Assembly (NCBI GenBank): GCA_942493095.1
Contig: OW818675.1
Coordinates: forward strand, 2,910,001-2,942,000
DNA: 32,000 nucleotides
Reading direction: 5' to 3'
Origin: Candidatus Electronema halotolerans
GTDB taxonomy: Bacteria > Desulfobacterota > Desulfobulbia > Desulfobulbales > Desulfobulbaceae
The translations under genes were made by a program, and so were the position numbers. Below are positions 21,155-29,128 of the stretch, in pieces (within the stretch, counting starts at the first letter, position 1; each line of letters begins with the position of its first letter). The notes under the pieces are model-generated. The model was not told where the DNA came from and searched no databases. It saw only the letters and a list, made by a program, of their open reading frames with translations.

Positions 21155-21192
21155 AGATATTTCTATTCCATATATAGCGGAGGCAACACACG

Positions 21193-22227
21193 ATGTCGGA
21201 GGAGAAAAAGAAAGAGCTGGTTGAAGAGCAGGACGACGGAACGGGGAAAGAATCCCGCCGTGATTTCCTGAAAAAAGTGGGTGTTGCAGCCGCTGCAACA
21301 GCCGCTGTCCCAGCAGCCACGGCCAAGGCGGCGGGCATAGCCGAAGCATTGCAGACGCATTTTCGCTTGATGAGTGATGAGGAGAAGAAGGAGGCCATTG
21401 CCCGCTTGGAAAAACGCTACAGCGAGCAGTATGACAAGCAGGTCACAGTGGCCAACACGCCTGCCCCGGATGGAGTGCTGTTTGGCTATGCGCTCAATAT
21501 TTCCAAATGCATCGGCTGCCGCCGCTGCGTTGAGGCCTGCGTCAGGGAAAACAATCAGTCCCGTGATCCCGCAATCGAGTGGATTCGGGTCTTGCGGATG
21601 GAGCGGGGCAACGACACGTTTGAATTGGAAAATTTGAACGACGGCTATCCCGACAGCAGTCCTTTGGGAGACTACGGCATCCAATCCGGCGGCCATGCCG
21701 ACAAAGCTGTTGGCATTTCCGGTGATGTTGAGCATTACTATGACCCGGAGCTGGTCCCGGAAAGCAATTTCTTTTATTTTCCGGTGCAGTGCCAGCAATG
21801 TGAAGACCCGCCCTGTGTCAAGGCCTGTCCGGTTCGGGCGACTTTCAGGGATGAAAATGGCATCGTGGTTATTGATTACAACTGGTGCATCGGCTGCCGG
21901 ATGTGCCAATTGGCCTGTCCGTATTGGGCGCGCCACTTCAACTGGGGCGAACCAGTGCTGCCAAATGAGGAGATGAATCCCAAGACCCATTATTTGGGGA
22001 ATCGTCCTCGCATGCGCGGAGTCATGGAAAAATGCATCTTCTGTTTGCAGAGGGTGAGAGAGGGACGTTATCCGGCCTGCGTGGAAGCCTGTCCTGTGGG
22101 GGCAAGAAAATTCGGCAATCTGCTTGATCCTGAAAGCGAAGTGAGAAAGGTTTTGGCTACCAAGAAGGTGTTCCGATTCAAGGAGGATTATAACACCGAT
22201 CCAAAATTCTTCTATTTCATGGATTAG
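21193..22227 (+). CDS. Tat-exported four-cluster 4Fe-4S ferredoxin subunit (PsrB/NrfC/DmsB-like)
   Basis: The twin-arginine motif is SRRDFLKKVGVAAAATAAV. Four Cys clusters are present: CIGCRRCVEAC, CQQCEDPPCVKACP, CIGCRMCQLACP and CIFC...CVEACP. Confidence 0.85.
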   Translation: MSEEKKKELVEEQDDGTGKESRRDFLKKVGVAAAATAAVPAATAKAAGIAEALQTHFRLMSDEEKKEAIARLEKRYSEQYDKQVTVANTPAPDGVLFGYALNISKCIGCRRCVEACVRENNQSRDPAIEWIRVLRMERGNDTFELENLNDGYPDSSPLGDYGIQSGGHADKAVGISGDVEHYYDPELVPESNFFYFPVQCQQCEDPPCVKACPVRATFRDENGIVVIDYNWCIGCRMCQLACPYWARHFNWGEPVLPNEEMNPKTHYLGNRPRMRGVMEKCIFCLQRVREGRYPACVEACPVGARKFGNLLDPESEVRKVLATKKVFRFKEDYNTDPKFFYFMD

Positions 22228-22240
22228 AGAGGTATTGATC

Positions 22241-23509
22241 ATGACTATGAAACAGCAAATAGCTTCCGCTTCCCAAAAGCCGAGAGCTTTCGCCAGTGAA
22301 TTTTTCAGCTATGCCATCAAAGGAGGAAACCTCTACTATGGCTGGCTGCTCTTTCTTTCCTTTTTTGTCCTTGTGGGGCTGTACACCACCTACGTACAGA
22401 TGACCAAGGGCCTCATCGTCACCGGGGCCACAGACCAGATCATCTGGGAGCTGTTCATCTCCAACTTCATCTTCACCGCCCACATTGCGGCGGCGGCAGT
22501 GCTGGTGGTGATTCCCGCTTATATCTATAAGCGCGAAGACATGAAGCATTTGGCCGTTCTTGGCGAGATCATCGCCCTGACCTTCGTCATTATCGGCCTC
22601 AACTTCATCATGTATCACCTGGGTCGGCCAGACCGGTTCTGGCATGCGCTTCCTGGATTGGGCATCTTCAACTTTCCCAATTCAATGCTCACCTATGACA
22701 TCATAGTGCTGAACACATACCTGGCCATCAACTTGGTGGCGGTTTTCTATCTGTTGTACAAGCGCTATCTTGGTCAGCCGCTGAACACCATGTTTTACAC
22801 CCCGTTGATCTACTTGGCCGTGGTTTGGGGGCCGCTGATTCATATCGTCACCGCCTTCATCCTCAGCAGCAATGCGCCAATCTCGGCCTGGCATACGGCG
22901 GTGCTTCCCTTTGCCTTTTTATCCATGGCAGGCGCATCAGGAGCAGCTTTGGTCATCATCCTGTTCCTCCTGATTCGCAAATACAGCAAACTGCATATTG
23001 CCGACTCGGTTATTGACTTCTTTTCGCAGGTCATTGTCTGGAGTCTGGGGATCATCATTCTGGTCTTTGCCTCTGAGTTTTTTACGGAGCTGTATCCAGG
23101 CACCCATCATGCCGCGTCCCTGAAGTACATGATGTTTGGTCATCACGGTCTGGATGCTTATGTCCCGTGGTTTTGGCTGACTATGGCCCTGATCGTGCTT
23201 CCGTTCCTCCTGATGCTCAACAGCAAAATACGGAAAAGCTACAACAGTTTCCTGCCAGCGATCTGTTTTGTGGTCTTCATGACCATCCTGATGGAAAAAC
23301 CGGCAGTCTTGGTCTTTCCGGCCTTCAGTCCGACCTCATTGGGTGAATATGCCGTGTATCATCCAACCTTTGTTGAAATCTTCAACGTCCTGTTCATCTG
23401 GGCAGTCGGCTTTCTTATCCTGACTTTGCTCACCAAGGGTGCTCTTGGCGTGTTGACCGGTGAAGTGCGGAATACCAAAACAGTGGAAGCAAGTGGAGAT
23501 GCGAAATGA
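22241..23509 (+). CDS. NrfD/PsrC-family integral membrane quinone-interacting subunit
   Basis: Start at ATG 22241. The ~420-aa polytopic hydrophobic protein follows the FeS subunit directly, the canonical NrfD position. Its stop overlaps the next gene's ATG (ATGA at 23506-23509). Confidence 0.75.
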   Translation: MTMKQQIASASQKPRAFASEFFSYAIKGGNLYYGWLLFLSFFVLVGLYTTYVQMTKGLIVTGATDQIIWELFISNFIFTAHIAAAAVLVVIPAYIYKREDMKHLAVLGEIIALTFVIIGLNFIMYHLGRPDRFWHALPGLGIFNFPNSMLTYDIIVLNTYLAINLVAVFYLLYKRYLGQPLNTMFYTPLIYLAVVWGPLIHIVTAFILSSNAPISAWHTAVLPFAFLSMAGASGAALVIILFLLIRKYSKLHIADSVIDFFSQVIVWSLGIIILVFASEFFTELYPGTHHAASLKYMMFGHHGLDAYVPWFWLTMALIVLPFLLMLNSKIRKSYNSFLPAICFVVFMTILMEKPAVLVFPAFSPTSLGEYAVYHPTFVEIFNVLFIWAVGFLILTLLTKGALGVLTGEVRNTKTVEASGDAK

Positions 23510-24336
23510 TTTCAGGGAGCAAATACGTGAGAGCAGCGGTTTTCTCCGGTCTTCTTGTCTTAGTGATCGGCGGCTTGGCACTCCAAAAGATGCCTGGCGA
23601 GGCTGCTGCGCAAGACAAGGCCGGGGCCGGGCAAGATAAGGCCAATGCAGCACCGGATGAGTGCTACGAGAGCATCAAAGATGCCACCAATCTTGCAAGG
23701 GTGGATAATGCGGTCCCCAAGTACGGTTATCCCAATGTGAAGTGTTCCCCCACCACCGGGGCAGTCCTCTGGTACGGTGATCCTTACTATGGCACTGAAC
23801 CTATTGGAGAAATGCCGCACTTCAACGACCGGACCGATGGCGACTTTGCCCAAGCGGTCATCAGGCCCCGTGCGAAGAGCTTGAAAACTCCCATGCAGTG
23901 CAGCGGCTGTCATCCTGGTGCGGATCCGGCTACGCAGAAAAATGATCCCCGCCAGATCATGAATCACCAAGATATTGTCAGCGATGCCAGCAAGCTGCAG
24001 CATGGCCGGGGAGCCATCTGGTGCTTTGACTGCCATAATGCTGCCAATCGTGACACCCTTGTTGACCGTCGCGGGCAAGAGGTCAGCTTTAATGAGTCCT
24101 ACAAGGTCTGCGGCAGCTGTCACGGTGACACCTACAGCAATTGGCGCATGGGCATCCACGGCAAGCGTATTGGCTCATGGAAAGTGGGAGGAAAAAAACG
24201 GTGGTGGACCTGCACGGAATGCCACAATCCCCACACTGTTCAGGAGCATCGCTTTCAGCCGCTTAAACCTGAACCGCCACCAGCCCTGCCCCGTGGCATG
24301 ACCAAGGAAGACTTCAAGGCTGCCGAGGGTCACTGA
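23506..24336 (+). CDS. membrane-anchored/periplasmic tetrahaem cytochrome c
   Basis: It has an N-terminal hydrophobic anchor (AAVFSGLLVLVIGGLAL) and four CxxCH motifs: CSGCH, CFDCH, CGSCH, CTECH. Confidence 0.8.
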   Translation: MISGSKYVRAAVFSGLLVLVIGGLALQKMPGEAAAQDKAGAGQDKANAAPDECYESIKDATNLARVDNAVPKYGYPNVKCSPTTGAVLWYGDPYYGTEPIGEMPHFNDRTDGDFAQAVIRPRAKSLKTPMQCSGCHPGADPATQKNDPRQIMNHQDIVSDASKLQHGRGAIWCFDCHNAANRDTLVDRRGQEVSFNESYKVCGSCHGDTYSNWRMGIHGKRIGSWKVGGKKRWWTCTECHNPHTVQEHRFQPLKPEPPPALPRGMTKEDFKAAEGH

Positions 24337-24806: not shown

Positions 24807-25162
24807 TCTGGAGGGCGTTTGAAGACCTTGGCCGCTGTTTCTCTCAAGCCGGTGAAAACGCCTTTCGGCATCAAAGATAGAATCACGGATGGCGTTTTTT
24901 CAGATGTCGCCTTCCTCTCTACGTGCTCAACGCCTTTCGGCATCAAAGATAGAATCACACCCAAGGCCCGGAAAATTCGGCAAGCTGCTTGGAGTGCTCA
25001 ACGCCTTTCGGCATCAAAGATAGAATCACGGACAATCGTCATTCCTGAAGATGGTTCCGGCGGGTGCTCAACGCCTTTCGGCATCAAAGATAGAATCACA
25101 CGGCCCGCAGATCGGCCTGTCCTCCAAGTTTGTGTGCTCAACGCCTTTCGGCATCAAAGATA

Positions 25163-25288
25163 TAGCGGTTACACGCCGAATGGTGATCACCCTGATATAT
25201 TGATGCTTAATTTAACTTGTTGAATTTATACATACAAAACTTTTGACAAAGCAAAGATATTTGATAGCCGTTCAACCCATAACCGCTA
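25163..25288 (+). mobile_element. 126-bp MITE-like non-autonomous element, copy 1, inserted in CRISPR repeat 5
   Basis: Repeat 5 is split as ...CATCAAAGATA | element | TAGAATCAC. TA is duplicated at 25161-25162 and 25289-25290. The termini are TAGCGGTTA...TAACCGCTA (9-bp perfect inverted repeat, about 27 bp imperfect). The core is AT-rich and has no ORF. Confidence 0.85.
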
Positions 25289-25720
25289 TAGAATCACAAC
25301 ACTTGGCCAAGAAGATACATAAAACCGTCATGTGCTCAACGCCTTTCGGCATCAAAGATAGAATCACAAGATCATGACCGCAGACCGCAAAACAGTCCAA
25401 ACGTGCTCAACGCCTTTCGGCATCAAAGATAGAATCACCGACCACAGGCACGAGAACATGCAGCCAACGATCTATTGCTCAACGCCTTTCGGCATCAAAG
25501 ATAGAATCACTTGTTCTTCCGCCGACAATAGCAACGATCAGCATGATTGCTCAACGCCTTTCGGCATCAAAGATAGAATCACGTACAATCGGCTTGCCAA
25601 AGGCAGGCGGTTAATGCAGGGTGCTCAACGCCTTTCGGCATCAAAGATAGAATCACAGGAGCCTTGAAATCAATATGCTCCAATTGAAAATGTGCTCAAC
25701 GCCTTTCGGCATCAAAGATA

Positions 25721-25846
25721 TAGCGGTTATGGGTTGAACGGCTATCAAATATCTTTGCTTTGTCAAAAGTTTTGTATGTATAAATTCAACAAGTTAAATT
25801 AAGCATCAATATATCAGGGTGATCACCATTCGGCGTGTAACCGCTA
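25721..25846 (-). mobile_element. 126-bp MITE-like element, copy 2 (exact reverse complement of copy 1), inserted in CRISPR repeat 11
   Basis: Base-by-base comparison by hand shows 25721-25846 equals the reverse complement of 25163-25288. The insertion point within the repeat is the same, with TA duplicated at 25719-25720 and 25847-25848. Confidence 0.85.
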
Positions 25847-26464
25847 TAGAATCACGAGCAGTTGCTTTGGATTCAGTGGGGTCAATGGGTGGTGCTCAAC
25901 GCCTTTCGGCATCAAAGATAGAATCACGGGGCAAAGAAAAAAATCTTCGATGCTTCCATGAAAGTGCTCAACGCCTTTCGGCATCAAAGATAGAATCACA
26001 TCCTCAACAGCGCGGAGATGCTGTCGAGGTAGTGTGCTCAACGCCTTTCGGCATCAAAGATAGAATCACTCACGCTCTGACTCAACCTGCGCGTACATCC
26101 TCATAGTGCTCAACGCCTTTCGGCATCAAAGATAGAATCACGCCTTTCGCTGGCGATCACTGAGCCAAGAATAGGGGTGCTCAACGCCTTTCGGCATCAA
26201 AGATAGAATCACGTAATCTTGTAGCCTGCTCCGGCATGGTTATCAAGTGCTCAACGCCTTTCGGCATCAAAGATAGAATCACAGTACTCCCTGTTTTGCT
26301 GACATCTGCTCCAGTGAGTGCTCAACGCCTTTCGGCATCAAAGATAGAATCACTACCACAAACTCTTTCAGGTACTCAGCACAGCAAAGTGCTCAACGCC
26401 TTTCGGCATCAAAGATAGAATCACGCGCCCTTGTCTGTGGTAGGTTACGCCTACGCTGTGTGCT

Positions 26465-27352
26465 GGTAATGGTGAATCGTGAGTGATGGGTTGAAAATAT
26501 GTTGAAATTGATGGAAAATATAATATACTGGCGGCAAGGGATGCTCTCTGTCCCATCGGCTCTTCGTCGGATGCGCATGTCAAGCCGTCATTATGAAAAA
26601 AACAAACATGGAGAAGAAAGCTGTGCAATGCCCAAGATGTGGTTCATCAGTCATTGTGAAAAATGGCTCCAATGCGAATGGGAAAAAGAAATTTTTATGT
26701 AAGGACTGCTCACGTCAATTCGTTGAGAATCCTCAGAACAAAACAATATCTGATGCTGAATGGCGCATAGTTGATAAGCTTCTTGTTGAAAGAATCTCAT
26801 TGGCTGGGATTGCGAGAGCCGTTTCCATCTCAAAAAGATGGCTTCAGGAATATGTTAAAAAAAAACGAAATGAAGTCAAAAAAGAGGCTTTCAATATGTC
26901 CCGCAACGGAAAAATCTTCATCGAAGCCGATGAAATGTGGACTTTCGTTGGTGACAAGGAAAATGATATTTGGATATGGCTTGCTATCGAGAGAAGAACA
27001 AAGCTTATTGTCGGGTATCATGTTGGAAAAAGAGATAATGCAGGAGCAGCCGCCTTGTGGGACTCCCTTTCTGAAGATTGCAAAAAGAACGGAATATTTT
27101 TTACGGATGGACTCGCCGCTTATTCGAGCGTGTTTCCAGCTGAAAGGCATAGAATTGTCAGCAAAGGAAGCGGAAAAACAAGTCATATCGAAAGGCTCAA
27201 TTTGACATTCAGACAAAGATTGTCTGCACTTGTCAGAAAGACCATTTCATTTTCGAGAAGCATCGAAAATTTAACTGCATCTGTCTGGAGGTTCATTCAA
27301 GATTATAATAATAATCTTTTGTTTAATTGATCACTCACAGTTCACCATCACC
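26465..27352 (+). mobile_element. IS1-family insertion sequence (888 bp) inserted in CRISPR repeat 20
   Basis: The terminal inverted repeats are GGTAATGGTGAATCGTGAGTGAT (left) and GGTGATGGTGAACTGTGAGTGAT (right, reverse complement), which start GGT(A/G)ATG as in IS1. The 7-bp direct repeat GTGTGCT flanks it at 26458-26464 and 27353-27359. It contains a single transposase ORF. Confidence 0.9.
26593..27330 (+). CDS. IS1-family transposase (fused InsA-InsB type, single ORF)
   Basis: It has an N-terminal zinc finger (CPRCGSS...CKDC), an HTH-like region (ISLAGIARAVSISKRWL) and a DDE-domain block (FIEADEMWTFVGDKENDIWIWLAIER...FFTDGLAAY...KTSHIERLNLTFRQRL). The stop codon lies in the right inverted repeat. 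Confidence 0.88.
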   Translation: MKKTNMEKKAVQCPRCGSSVIVKNGSNANGKKKFLCKDCSRQFVENPQNKTISDAEWRIVDKLLVERISLAGIARAVSISKRWLQEYVKKKRNEVKKEAFNMSRNGKIFIEADEMWTFVGDKENDIWIWLAIERRTKLIVGYHVGKRDNAGAAALWDSLSEDCKKNGIFFTDGLAAYSSVFPAERHRIVSKGSGKTSHIERLNLTFRQRLSALVRKTISFSRSIENLTASVWRFIQDYNNNLLFN

Positions 27353-28355
27353 GTGTGCTCAACGCCTTTCGGCATCAAAGATAGAATCACATGCTGCACC
27401 TGCGGGAAGCTGTACATGGAACCGGTGCTCAACGCCTTTCGGCATCAAAGATAGAATCACCGTTACAAGACGGCTAATCAAGTCTGCTGACTCAGGTGCT
27501 CAACGCCTTTCGGCATCAAAGATAGAATCACAAGCCCCAAGGCGCGTTTGTGAGAATAGTTATCAATTGCTCAACGCCTTTCGGCATCAAAGATAGAATC
27601 ACTTGGTTGACTGGATTAAAAATAACAGGTATTCTGTTTGCTCAACGCCTTTCGGCATCAAAGATAGAATCACAAAGGTAGAGGGCAACCGATCAAAGGA
27701 AAAAACTTTTGCTCAACGCCTTTCGGCATCAAAGATAGAATCACAGCCCTTCCTGCAGCCCTCTGCTGACGGGCTGCGCAGCACGACAAATCAAGCTGGC
27801 CTGCTGTTCTGTTTCCGCTGCTTGCAAAACAAGCAATTCTTTCCACCCTCCTTTTGCTCAGGTTAATGATTTCAGATGAAAAAATCCACATTCAAGCACC
27901 TGCTGCCCCTGTCGGCGGTCAAAATCAGCCGCAGCCGCAGCACCTTGCCGCCGCTGCCTGCAACCGTGCTGATACTATCATGAATATCCATGAATTGGCA
28001 AGCGGATATTTATATCAGGCTGCTGAATTTTTGGTATTCTCCCTCTTGAGAATTGCTAAATAATTGTTTATCCTTCTGTGTCTGTCAACCTCTTTCTTAA
28101 AGAGCAGCATGGTTGTTATCGGGAAACAACACGCAACAGGGTGACGAGCAGCAATTCCTCCCGAAAAAAATTCATGCCGTCACACACCACAAGGCTTCGC
28201 GCTGAAGGTGATCAGCATTCAGCCTCTATGAATAGGCAGCAAGTTGGGTTACAATAAAAATCACAAAGCGACACTGACCACTTTCTACCGGGCGGCTCAC
28301 AGCTTGTCTGTCTGTCTGCCTGTTTGGATGAACACTGCCTGCCACAGGAGAAAAC

Positions 28356-28601
28356 ATGAATTCCCTTGCAACTGCTGCGACATTTTTCGGCTGGGCAACC
28401 CTGATCAACATTGTTTTGCTGCTGATTGCGGTGCTGGCCATAACATTTCTCCGCTGCCCAATAGCAAAAATTCACAGCAGGCTGTTGGGTATGAACGAGG
28501 CGGAGCTGGCTCCTCTGTATTTTCAGTATTTGGCCAATTACAAGCTCTTGGTCATCATCTTCAATCTGGTGCCGTATGTTGCCTTGAAGATTATGCTCTG
28601 A
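28356..28601 (+). CDS. small integral membrane protein (hypothetical)
   Basis: The RBS is AGGAGAAAAC before the ATG. The 81-aa product has two clear hydrophobic helices (FFGWATLINIVLLLIAVLAITF; LLVIIFNLVPYVALKIM). It ends 2 nt before the next gene. Confidence 0.55.
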   Translation: MNSLATAATFFGWATLINIVLLLIAVLAITFLRCPIAKIHSRLLGMNEAELAPLYFQYLANYKLLVIIFNLVPYVALKIML

Positions 28602-28603
28602 CC

Positions 28604-29128
28604 ATGCTTGCTTATCTTAAAAGCAATCTGCTCGCAGGTTGCAGGATATGTCCTTTCAGTCAGAGGATAAATTTGTCTCTGCTGCTGCTGATCGGCTTTG
28701 CCTGCTTGGCAGCTGCGGTCGGCTTGAGCGGCAATCTCTTCCACTGGCAAATTTTAGATTCGGATATTGTCTATATCCTGCCGTTCTCCCTCTTCATTTT
28801 TCCCGTTTTCCTTGAAGAGGCATTTTTTCGCGGCATCCTGATCCCGAACAAAATCAAAGAAAAAGGCGGAAAAGCTGTTCTTGCGACAACGCTGTTCAGT
28901 GCCGCAGCCTTCACGCTCTGGCATCCGCTCAACGCGCTGACTGTGAATCCCGGCGCACAGGAACTGTTTCTCAATCCGCATTTTCTTTTCATCGTCTTCT
29001 GTCTGGGCATTACATGCAGTCTGTCGTACATCTTCTCCCAGTCGCTCTGGATGCCGATTTTCATTCATTGGCTCACCGTCCTGATCTGGGTTGTCTTTCT
29101 TGGCGGCAGAAATCTTGTTCTGGCATAA
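28604..29128 (+). CDS. CPBP (CAAX protease / Abi) family intramembrane metalloprotease
   Basis: Start at ATG 28604 (MLAYLK...). The long track ORF from 28244 is an upstream extension overlapping the previous gene. Motifs are EEAFFRG (EExxxR), FTLWH (FxxxH) and a later IFIHW histidine in TM helices. Confidence 0.75.
   Translation: MLAYLKSNLLAGCRICPFSQRINLSLLLLIGFACLAAAVGLSGNLFHWQILDSDIVYILPFSLFIFPVFLEEAFFRGILIPNKIKEKGGKAVLATTLFSAAAFTLWHPLNALTVNPGAQELFLNPHFLFIVFCLGITCSLSYIFSQSLWMPIFIHWLTVLIWVVFLGGRNLVLA

Follow-up and report, generated by a model that had tools for sequence, protein, structure and literature searches.

Candidatus Electronema halotolerans is a cable bacterium with a genome of 3,199,950 bp. 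The DNA analyzed here, referred to as the window, is a 32,000-nt stretch of that genome, and it holds a CRISPR array that is broken up by inserted mobile DNA. The features of the array and its immediate surroundings are as follows.

24851-27744, minus strand: CRISPR array of 25 repeats and 24 spacers; 36-nt repeat reading GTGCTCAACGCCTTTCGGCATCAAAGATAGAATCAC on the plus strand; interrupted three times.
25134-25297, minus strand: repeat 5, split by MITE copy 1 into 29 nt (25134-25162) and 9 nt (25289-25297); spacing of 198, i.e., 70 + 128.
25161-25162 (left TA) and 25289-25290 (its partner), no strand: target duplication of copy 1; intact repeats have a single TA (GATAGA).
25163-25288, plus strand: MITE copy 1, 126 bp; ends TAGCGGTTA...TAACCGCTA; imperfect terminal inverted repeats at 25163-25189 and 25262-25288.
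25291-25718, no strand: segment between the inverted copies, with five whole repeats and six spacers.
25692-25855, minus strand: repeat 11, split by MITE copy 2 into 29 nt (25692-25720) and 9 nt (25847-25855); spacing of 200, i.e., 72 + 128.
25847-25848 (right TA) and 25719-25720 (its partner), no strand: target duplication of copy 2, read from the sequence.
25721-25846, minus strand: MITE copy 2, 126 bp; exact reverse complement of copy 1.
26465-27352, plus strand: IS1-family insertion sequence, 888 bp, with 23-bp inverted ends starting GGTAATGGTGA and GGTGATGGTGA.
27745-28243, minus strand: probable leader region with minus-strand promoter-like sites; the next gene encodes a CAAX protease and takes the place of the cas2 of relatives.

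The array has a unit length of 70 to 74 bp, and each 36-nt repeat contains only one TA. Transcription of the array is most likely on the minus strand, because a degenerate terminal repeat is located at the 24851 end (24851-24886), only the minus strand gives a 9-bp repeat hairpin, the matches to Rfam CRISPR-DR33 (30 to 35 bits, under the gathering score of 39) are on that strand, promoter-like sites are found there (TTGACA-17-AATTAT at 28088-28060), and the cas2 genes of related arrays are on the side that corresponds to the right end of the window. The CAAX-protease gene at 28244-29128 encodes an Rce1-like protein (Pfam). Neither cas genes nor cas remnants were detected in the window by Pfam scans and tblastn, which covered 24.8 kb on one side of the array and 4.2 kb on the other.

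The IS1-family element contains a transposase ORF from 26593 (or 26623) to 27330, with matches to Pfam DDE_Tnp_IS1 (2.6e-21) and Zn_ribbon_InsA. It was inserted at a spacer/repeat boundary and is flanked by a 7-bp duplication (GTGTGCT, at 26458-26464 and 27353-27359). Five near-identical 235-aa IS1 products are present in Ca. E. halotolerans under 8 accessions; to judge from the accession range of the window genes, CAK8723359.1 is probably the copy in the array. Because this IS1 copy intervenes between the leader and the MITE-bearing part of the array and has a terminator-like minus-strand hairpin (26935-26916), leader-driven transcription may stop short of the MITEs.

A scripted string comparison established the exact reverse complementarity of the two 126-bp elements. 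A repeat search of the window recovered the pair as a 130-nt inverted repeat with 100% complementarity (arms 25161-25290 and 25719-25848, with 428 nt between them), each arm corresponding to the 126-bp MITE plus the TA on either side. Both split repeats read ...CATCAAAGATA, then the element, and then TAGAATCAC. The 23 intact repeats, which read GATAGAATCAC, represent empty sites; the inserted DNA is therefore exactly 128 bp, i.e., 126 bp plus a 2-bp TA duplication. The spacing of the array agrees with this value, with start-to-start distances of 198 and 200 at the interrupted units and 70 to 74 elsewhere. A 3-bp duplication (TAT or ATA) was rejected, as it predicts the empty site AAAGATATAGAATC, whereas the intact repeats read AAAGATAGAATC. 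An earlier note on this DNA, made from its letters, had described two identical 126-bp elements in opposite orientations at the same repeat position with TA duplications, and string identity, spacing, and the 23 empty sites confirm that description. Its statement that the remaining ~29 kb has no other copy also held: a scan of the window for the termini at up to 3 mismatches yielded 4 matches (0.00 expected by chance), which were those of the two copies, with no further copy or lone terminus.

The terminal 9 bases of the element are perfect inverted repeats (TAGCGGTTA/TAACCGCTA) and are part of imperfect inverted arms of ~27 to 29 bp, which, counted with the TA, span 29 nt at 72%. The core is AT-rich, and stop codons in all six frames leave the 126 bp without coding capacity. 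Self-folding of the two strands as RNA gave -29.6 kcal/mol (z = -4.3) and -31.2 kcal/mol (z = -3.1), and no promoter or terminator was detected inside the element at the scan thresholds. The 126-bp element is thus MITE-like and nonautonomous, being short and noncoding, with terminal inverted repeats and a TA duplication verified by empty sites. The earlier reading of it as a MITE with these termini and a TA duplication is supported by its size, the six-frame stops, and the inverted ends. Bacterial MITEs as a class are typically <200 bp and AT-rich, with TA ends, a target duplication, and transcripts that form long stem-loops (PMC2229807). A relationship between the MITE and the neighboring IS1 element was considered and rejected: their termini differ, their duplications are 2 bp and 7 bp, respectively, and the only sequence that they have in common is the 8-mer AATGGTGA.

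Relatives of the element were sought with the terminus pattern TAGCGGTTANNNGNNGAANGGNNATCA, which fits both element ends, in viral, species-representative genome, and JGI metagenome collections. The metagenome scan returned 19 matches, one of which was a true relative, on the contig designated L029.

L029, 1690-1814: MITE relative, 125 bp, with a TA flank on both sides; ~75% identical overall and 88.6% identical over the right 70 bp.

This copy is intergenic and located outside any CRISPR array, 24 bp upstream of a small membrane-protein ORF. Its target (GCTG-TA-ATAC) and the CRISPR target (AAGA-TA-GAAT) have the TA alone in common, which counts against the homing to the CRISPR repeat that the earlier note suggested. 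At ≥90% identity, a protein encoded nearby on the contig falls into a cluster with a Ca. Electrothrix sp. AUS1_2 protein. Because the relative lies in non-CRISPR DNA on an Electrothrix-like contig, the MITE family appears to be common to cable-bacteria genera and not to be tied to CRISPR. The known copies are thus the two identical ones in the array and this diverged one.

The other searches for relatives gave chance matches or none. The species-representative genome scan produced 8 chance matches, mostly in a conserved Microcystis gene and none with the partner end, and the viral scan with the terminus pattern produced one; two further viral scans, in which conserved patterns from the interior and the right end were used, had no match. 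Six-frame MITE peptides, concatenated and aimed at spurious ORFs called over other MITE copies, had no match among 5.8 billion proteins (E ≤ 10). A blastn search of plasmids with the MITE gave a chance AT-rich match only, and both MITE versions had no blastn match in ~99 kb of loci from Ca. Electronema aureum, Electronema sp. JM, and four related arrays.

The related arrays were reached through a protein-database search with peptides translated from the repeat, which hit >1,000 spurious ORFs across arrays of the same family. Three of the arrays (L032, L033, and L034, with 30, 21, and 40 evenly spaced repeats, respectively) adjoin a type I-B-like operon, cas6-cas3-cas8b/DevT-cas7(DevR)-cas5-cas4/cas1-cas2, located on the side equivalent to the leader side in the window. 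Their repeats are identical to the window repeat over the first 27 nt, differ over the last 9, and contain no TA. The closest relative is the array L035, whose 35 repeats have no TA and no insertion. Its repeat (GATCGAATCAC) is one base apart from that of the window (GATAGAATCAC), with TCGA instead of TAGA, and it is through this one-base difference that the E. halotolerans repeat has its single TA. Across the four related arrays, 126 repeats in total, there were 0 TAs and 0 insertions. The window array resembles these type I-B arrays in the first 27 nt of its repeat, its unit size, its hairpin strand, and its CRISPR-DR33-like repeat. It differs from the four compared relatives in having a TA in the repeat and from the type I-B arrays in the absence of an adjoining cas operon from the 24.8 kb and 4.2 kb of flanking DNA. 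Its repeat accordingly belongs to a family used by type I-B systems, and the window array is without the adjacent cas operon.

These observations are best explained by an ordinary TA-targeting MITE that was mobilized in trans by an enzyme of the IS630/Tc1-mariner type and entered a permissive array, without cas genes in its vicinity, in two events, a reading to which we assign a probability of roughly 70%. Most likely, a nonautonomous MITE of a cable-bacteria family was mobilized by a TA-specific DDE transposase whose gene lies at another place in the genome, and two separate transpositions, presumably recent and independent, would have placed one copy in each orientation into the single TA of this repeat variant. 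The second copy may have been a short-range hop from the first. Opposite orientations are to be expected, since the TA target is palindromic. Duplication of the second copy by recombination between repeats was rejected, because its orientation is opposite to that of the first; the homology on one side is also only 9 bp. The insertions probably cost the cell little, because the array appears to have no nearby cas genes and also carries an IS1 element. Under this reading, the MITE has no specific action on CRISPR.

Strict TA duplication is the behavior of IS630/Tc1-mariner elements; enzymes of the IS5 type (ISL2/IS427) and the IS30 type make 2-bp duplications. TA flanks were found at 3 of the 3 known insertion sites (two in the array and one in L029), a sample of three in which two sites have the same sequence. 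The IS630/Tc1-mariner-type mobilization proposed in the earlier note is, on this basis, the most economical reading of the duplication. It is not a proven family assignment, as no autonomous partner (a longer element with TAGCGGTTA ends) was found in the scanned collections, which do not include the Ca. E. halotolerans genome. The same anatomy could have been produced by another mobilizer, i.e., an IS5-type or IS30-type enzyme or the enzyme behind the Correia elements of Neisseria. That no partner element was identified leaves room for such an enzyme, as does the likeness between the ends with their duplication (TATAGCGGTTA) and the start of Correia elements (TATAG[CT]GGATTAA), for which the mobilizing enzyme is undetermined (PMC2649163). 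However, the likeness to Correia is confined to the ~8 to 11 terminal bases, the TA duplication at all three sites is an IS630/Tc1-mariner habit, and RUP with IS630-Spn1 provides a precedent; we therefore regard a different mobilizer as unlikely.

The placement of both copies in CRISPR repeats raises the further question of whether the element homes to them, as the earlier note proposed in suggesting a CRISPR-parasitic or anti-CRISPR MITE. In such a scheme, the transposase would recognize the repeat by its sequence or hairpin, and the element would spread in arrays and disturb crRNA production. The scheme accounts for the finding that both window copies split repeats of a single array at an identical point and for the lack of copies in the other 29 kb. 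To weigh it, we counted the TAs in the window after removal of the inserted DNA. Of the 675 found, the array accounts for 55 (25 within repeats and 30 within spacers), and other noncoding DNA accounts for 100. The probability that both copies fall in repeat TAs by chance is 0.026 among the noncoding and array TAs of the window, a figure that favors homing. On the same basis, two hits within the array have a probability of 0.13, which becomes 0.0066 if all TAs are equally available. Because the window was chosen for the insertion feature, these window-level P values are post hoc.

Within the array, however, repeat TAs are not preferred over spacer TAs: given that both copies are in the array, the probability that both are in repeat TAs is 0.21, a weak test in view of the three known sites. 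The identical position within the two repeats carries no information, because each repeat offers one TA only. Homing is further opposed by the L029 relative, whose TA lies outside CRISPR DNA and has an unrelated flank, and by the 126 same-family repeats without insertion at four other loci. The IS1 element also landed in the same array, and the MITE has no terminator-like site. Nor does the insertion point fall within the hairpin or the handle of the repeat. On the transcribed strand, the TA occupies repeat positions 8-9, 5' of both the hairpin (~12-33) and the 8-nt handle. Homing, and with it an anti-CRISPR role, is therefore very unlikely. A variant in which the transposase prefers a TA beside the repeat hairpin, through DNA structure or array transcription, so that the MITE accumulates in arrays and paired copies silence blocks of spacers, is in our estimation less probable still. 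If it were true, the element would be a transposon living on CRISPR memory and disabling it through long dsRNA or invertible segments.

The favored reading, an ordinary TA-targeting MITE in a permissive array, leaves one feature partly explained. Two copies lie within 558 bp while the other 29 kb has none, a mild clustering that permissiveness alone does not fully account for. A permissive target and a short-range hop, singly or together, would fit it.

The consequences of the insertions for the RNA would be limited. In type I-B arrays processed by Cas6, the part of the repeat with the hairpin carries the cleavage site that yields the 8-nt handle. By analogy with these arrays, the corresponding part of both split repeats would be intact. 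At most, the crRNA upstream of each insertion would be lengthened at its 3' end by ~128 nt, with two crRNAs affected. A transcript across both copies is predicted to form a perfect duplex of 130 bp (minimum free energy of -380 kcal/mol for 761 nt). The dsRNA stem that the earlier note anticipated for a spanning transcript is thus thermodynamically sound, which is a statement about folding and implies no biological weight. RNase III is known to cleave the hairpins of Correia elements (PMC2649163). In principle, the 130-bp arms could allow the segment 25291-25718 to invert; in the assembly, this segment is un-inverted, and every repeat in it is direct and in the same orientation as in the rest of the array.

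The least probable explanation is that metagenome assembly or polishing created one of the copies or their perfect identity: although the source is a circular MAG assembled from Nanopore reads (Flye), with polishing by Racon and Medaka followed by Illumina polishing (PMC10030654), a procedure that can make repeats look identical, such an artifact is not expected to produce exact 128-bp insertions at TA, each copy has a clean TA duplication in an otherwise regular repeat unit, and the 686-bp structure with its unique flanking spacers is far shorter than a Nanopore read and fits within single reads. The 100% identity of the copies could nonetheless stem partly from short-read polishing of the Nanopore assembly (PMC10030654).

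The locus adds a MITE family of cable bacteria and a clean, empty-site-verified case of insertion into CRISPR repeats. It illustrates how one base (TAGA instead of TCGA) exposes every repeat of an array to a TA-specific transposon, the examined relatives being without that TA. Insertions of this type split arrays in automatic annotation, and they generate long inverted repeats, by which the locus can be destabilized. If CRISPR repeats were truly preferred, this would be a new kind of transposon-CRISPR conflict; the present evidence points away from it.

To our knowledge, Correia elements are found only in Neisseria. Like the MITE described here, these elements (Correia/NEMIS, or CREE) are ~105 to 155 bp and noncoding, with terminal inverted repeats and insertion at TA with TA duplication (PMC2649163; PMC10969869). 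Their transcript forms a long hairpin that is an RNase III substrate in Neisseria (PMC2649163; PMC10969869), and the MITE is also predicted to form a hairpin. With the duplication included, the first bases are TATAGCGG in the MITE and TATAG[CT]GG in Correia (PMC2649163). Past the ~8 to 11 terminal bases, neither the inverted repeat nor the core is related to its Correia counterpart. In a pattern comparison with the 26-bp Correia repeat, TATAG[CT]GGATTAA(CAAAAA/ATTTAAA)..., only TATAGCGG and the following TTA agreed, and neither of the Correia core motifs was found in the 126-bp sequence. Unlike Correia, the MITE has no promoter-like site at the scan threshold and no IHF site. Correia is thus a resemblance and not a family to which the element belongs, and the shared terminal bases may provide a lead to a possibly related transposase.

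A second point of comparison is RUP of Streptococcus pneumoniae, which is likewise a short MITE (~107 bp) with TA targets (PMC2229807). RUP is thought to be mobilized in trans by an IS630-family transposase (IS630-Spn1), on the grounds of similar termini and TA targets (PMC2229807). RUP has a candidate terminus-matched IS630 transposase, a link that is missing for the MITE described here. Another IS630-derived bacterial MITE is Nezha, from cyanobacteria.

Transposon insertions in CRISPR repeats have been cataloged previously, with 59 cases (PMC4852346). Among them, a 180-bp MITE of Microcystis aeruginosa NIES-843 and IS110 of Thermoanaerobacter are, like the copies described here, located inside a direct repeat and flanked by a target duplication (PMC4852346). 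In Thermoanaerobacter, several IS110 copies occupy one array, as do multiple copies here, and annotation splits such arrays (PMC4852346). Unlike in the cataloged cases, the copies here are identical, opposite in orientation, and inserted at TA, so that they form a 130-bp perfect inverted repeat; the element family and the size of the duplication also differ. The Ca. E. halotolerans element represents a new cable-bacteria MITE family, i.e., a known kind of element in a known kind of place, with two uncommon features: its copies form a perfect inverted pair, and its target owes its origin to a single base.

The sole TA dinucleotide of the window repeat is created by a single base, the one that separates its TAGA from the TCGA of the nearest repeat variant, which is found in L035 (JGI Ga0123519_10094462, positions 1-2604) and is otherwise identical to the window repeat. 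In the 30.8 kb of the window that are left when inserted DNA is subtracted, TA is depleted overall, with 675 sites accounting for 2.2% of dinucleotides, and CTAG, the classic IS630 target, is present a single time. Judged from these 30.8 kb, this target is almost unavailable in the Ca. Electronema halotolerans genome. The spacers of L035 are partly duplicated; TACGAGCGGGTGGCGCTGGAATCAATCCAGCGCAA is present three times, and two further spacers are repeated in near-identical form.

The CRISPR array and some other genes and elements of the window are arranged as follows.

666-1859: gene for a 397-aa product with a C-terminal TIR domain (Pfam TIR_2, 4e-20)
21163-24336: operon-like cluster encoding a 4Fe-4S ferredoxin-type protein, an NrfD-like membrane subunit, and a multihaem cytochrome c
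Side of the array opposite the leader: tRNA-Lys and tRNA-Glu
24851-27744: CRISPR array
26465-27352: IS1-family element of 888 bp, inside the array at a spacer/repeat boundary
Leader side of the array: CAAX protease, SNase-like nuclease, and YkgJ-like protein

No cas genes were detected anywhere in the window that contains the array and its probable leader (24851-28243), and the array may be orphaned. In other genomes, arrays with the same repeat core directly adjoin a type I-B operon. The tRNA genes and the array follow a short way downstream of the cluster at 21163-24336, whose proteins have identical matches in the Logan assemblies ERR9669565 and ERR9670067. The TIR-domain gene may be defence related.

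The IS1-family element carries one transposase ORF; its inverted ends measure 23 bp, and the duplication that flanks it 7 bp (GTGTGCT). For the Ca. E. halotolerans genome, eight accessions are listed for this IS, covering five 235-aa products that are almost identical to one another; one of these probably comes from the copy in the array.

Translations of CRISPR arrays of the window repeat's family, namely the spurious ORFs P0212, P0214, and P0215 called over arrays at L032, L034, and other loci, matched Pfam DUF6050 (PF19517) with scores of 33 to 38 bits, above the gathering cutoff of 27 bits. This suggests that translated CRISPR repeats, and not real proteins, make up at least part of the sequences on which DUF6050 was built.

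On L029, a metagenome contig carrying an Electrothrix-like relative of the MITE, the stretch 1387-1814 holds both that relative and, on the opposite strand, a small membrane-protein ORF; the relative lies 24 bp upstream of this ORF. Its position would thus be promoter proximal, as it is for many Correia elements.
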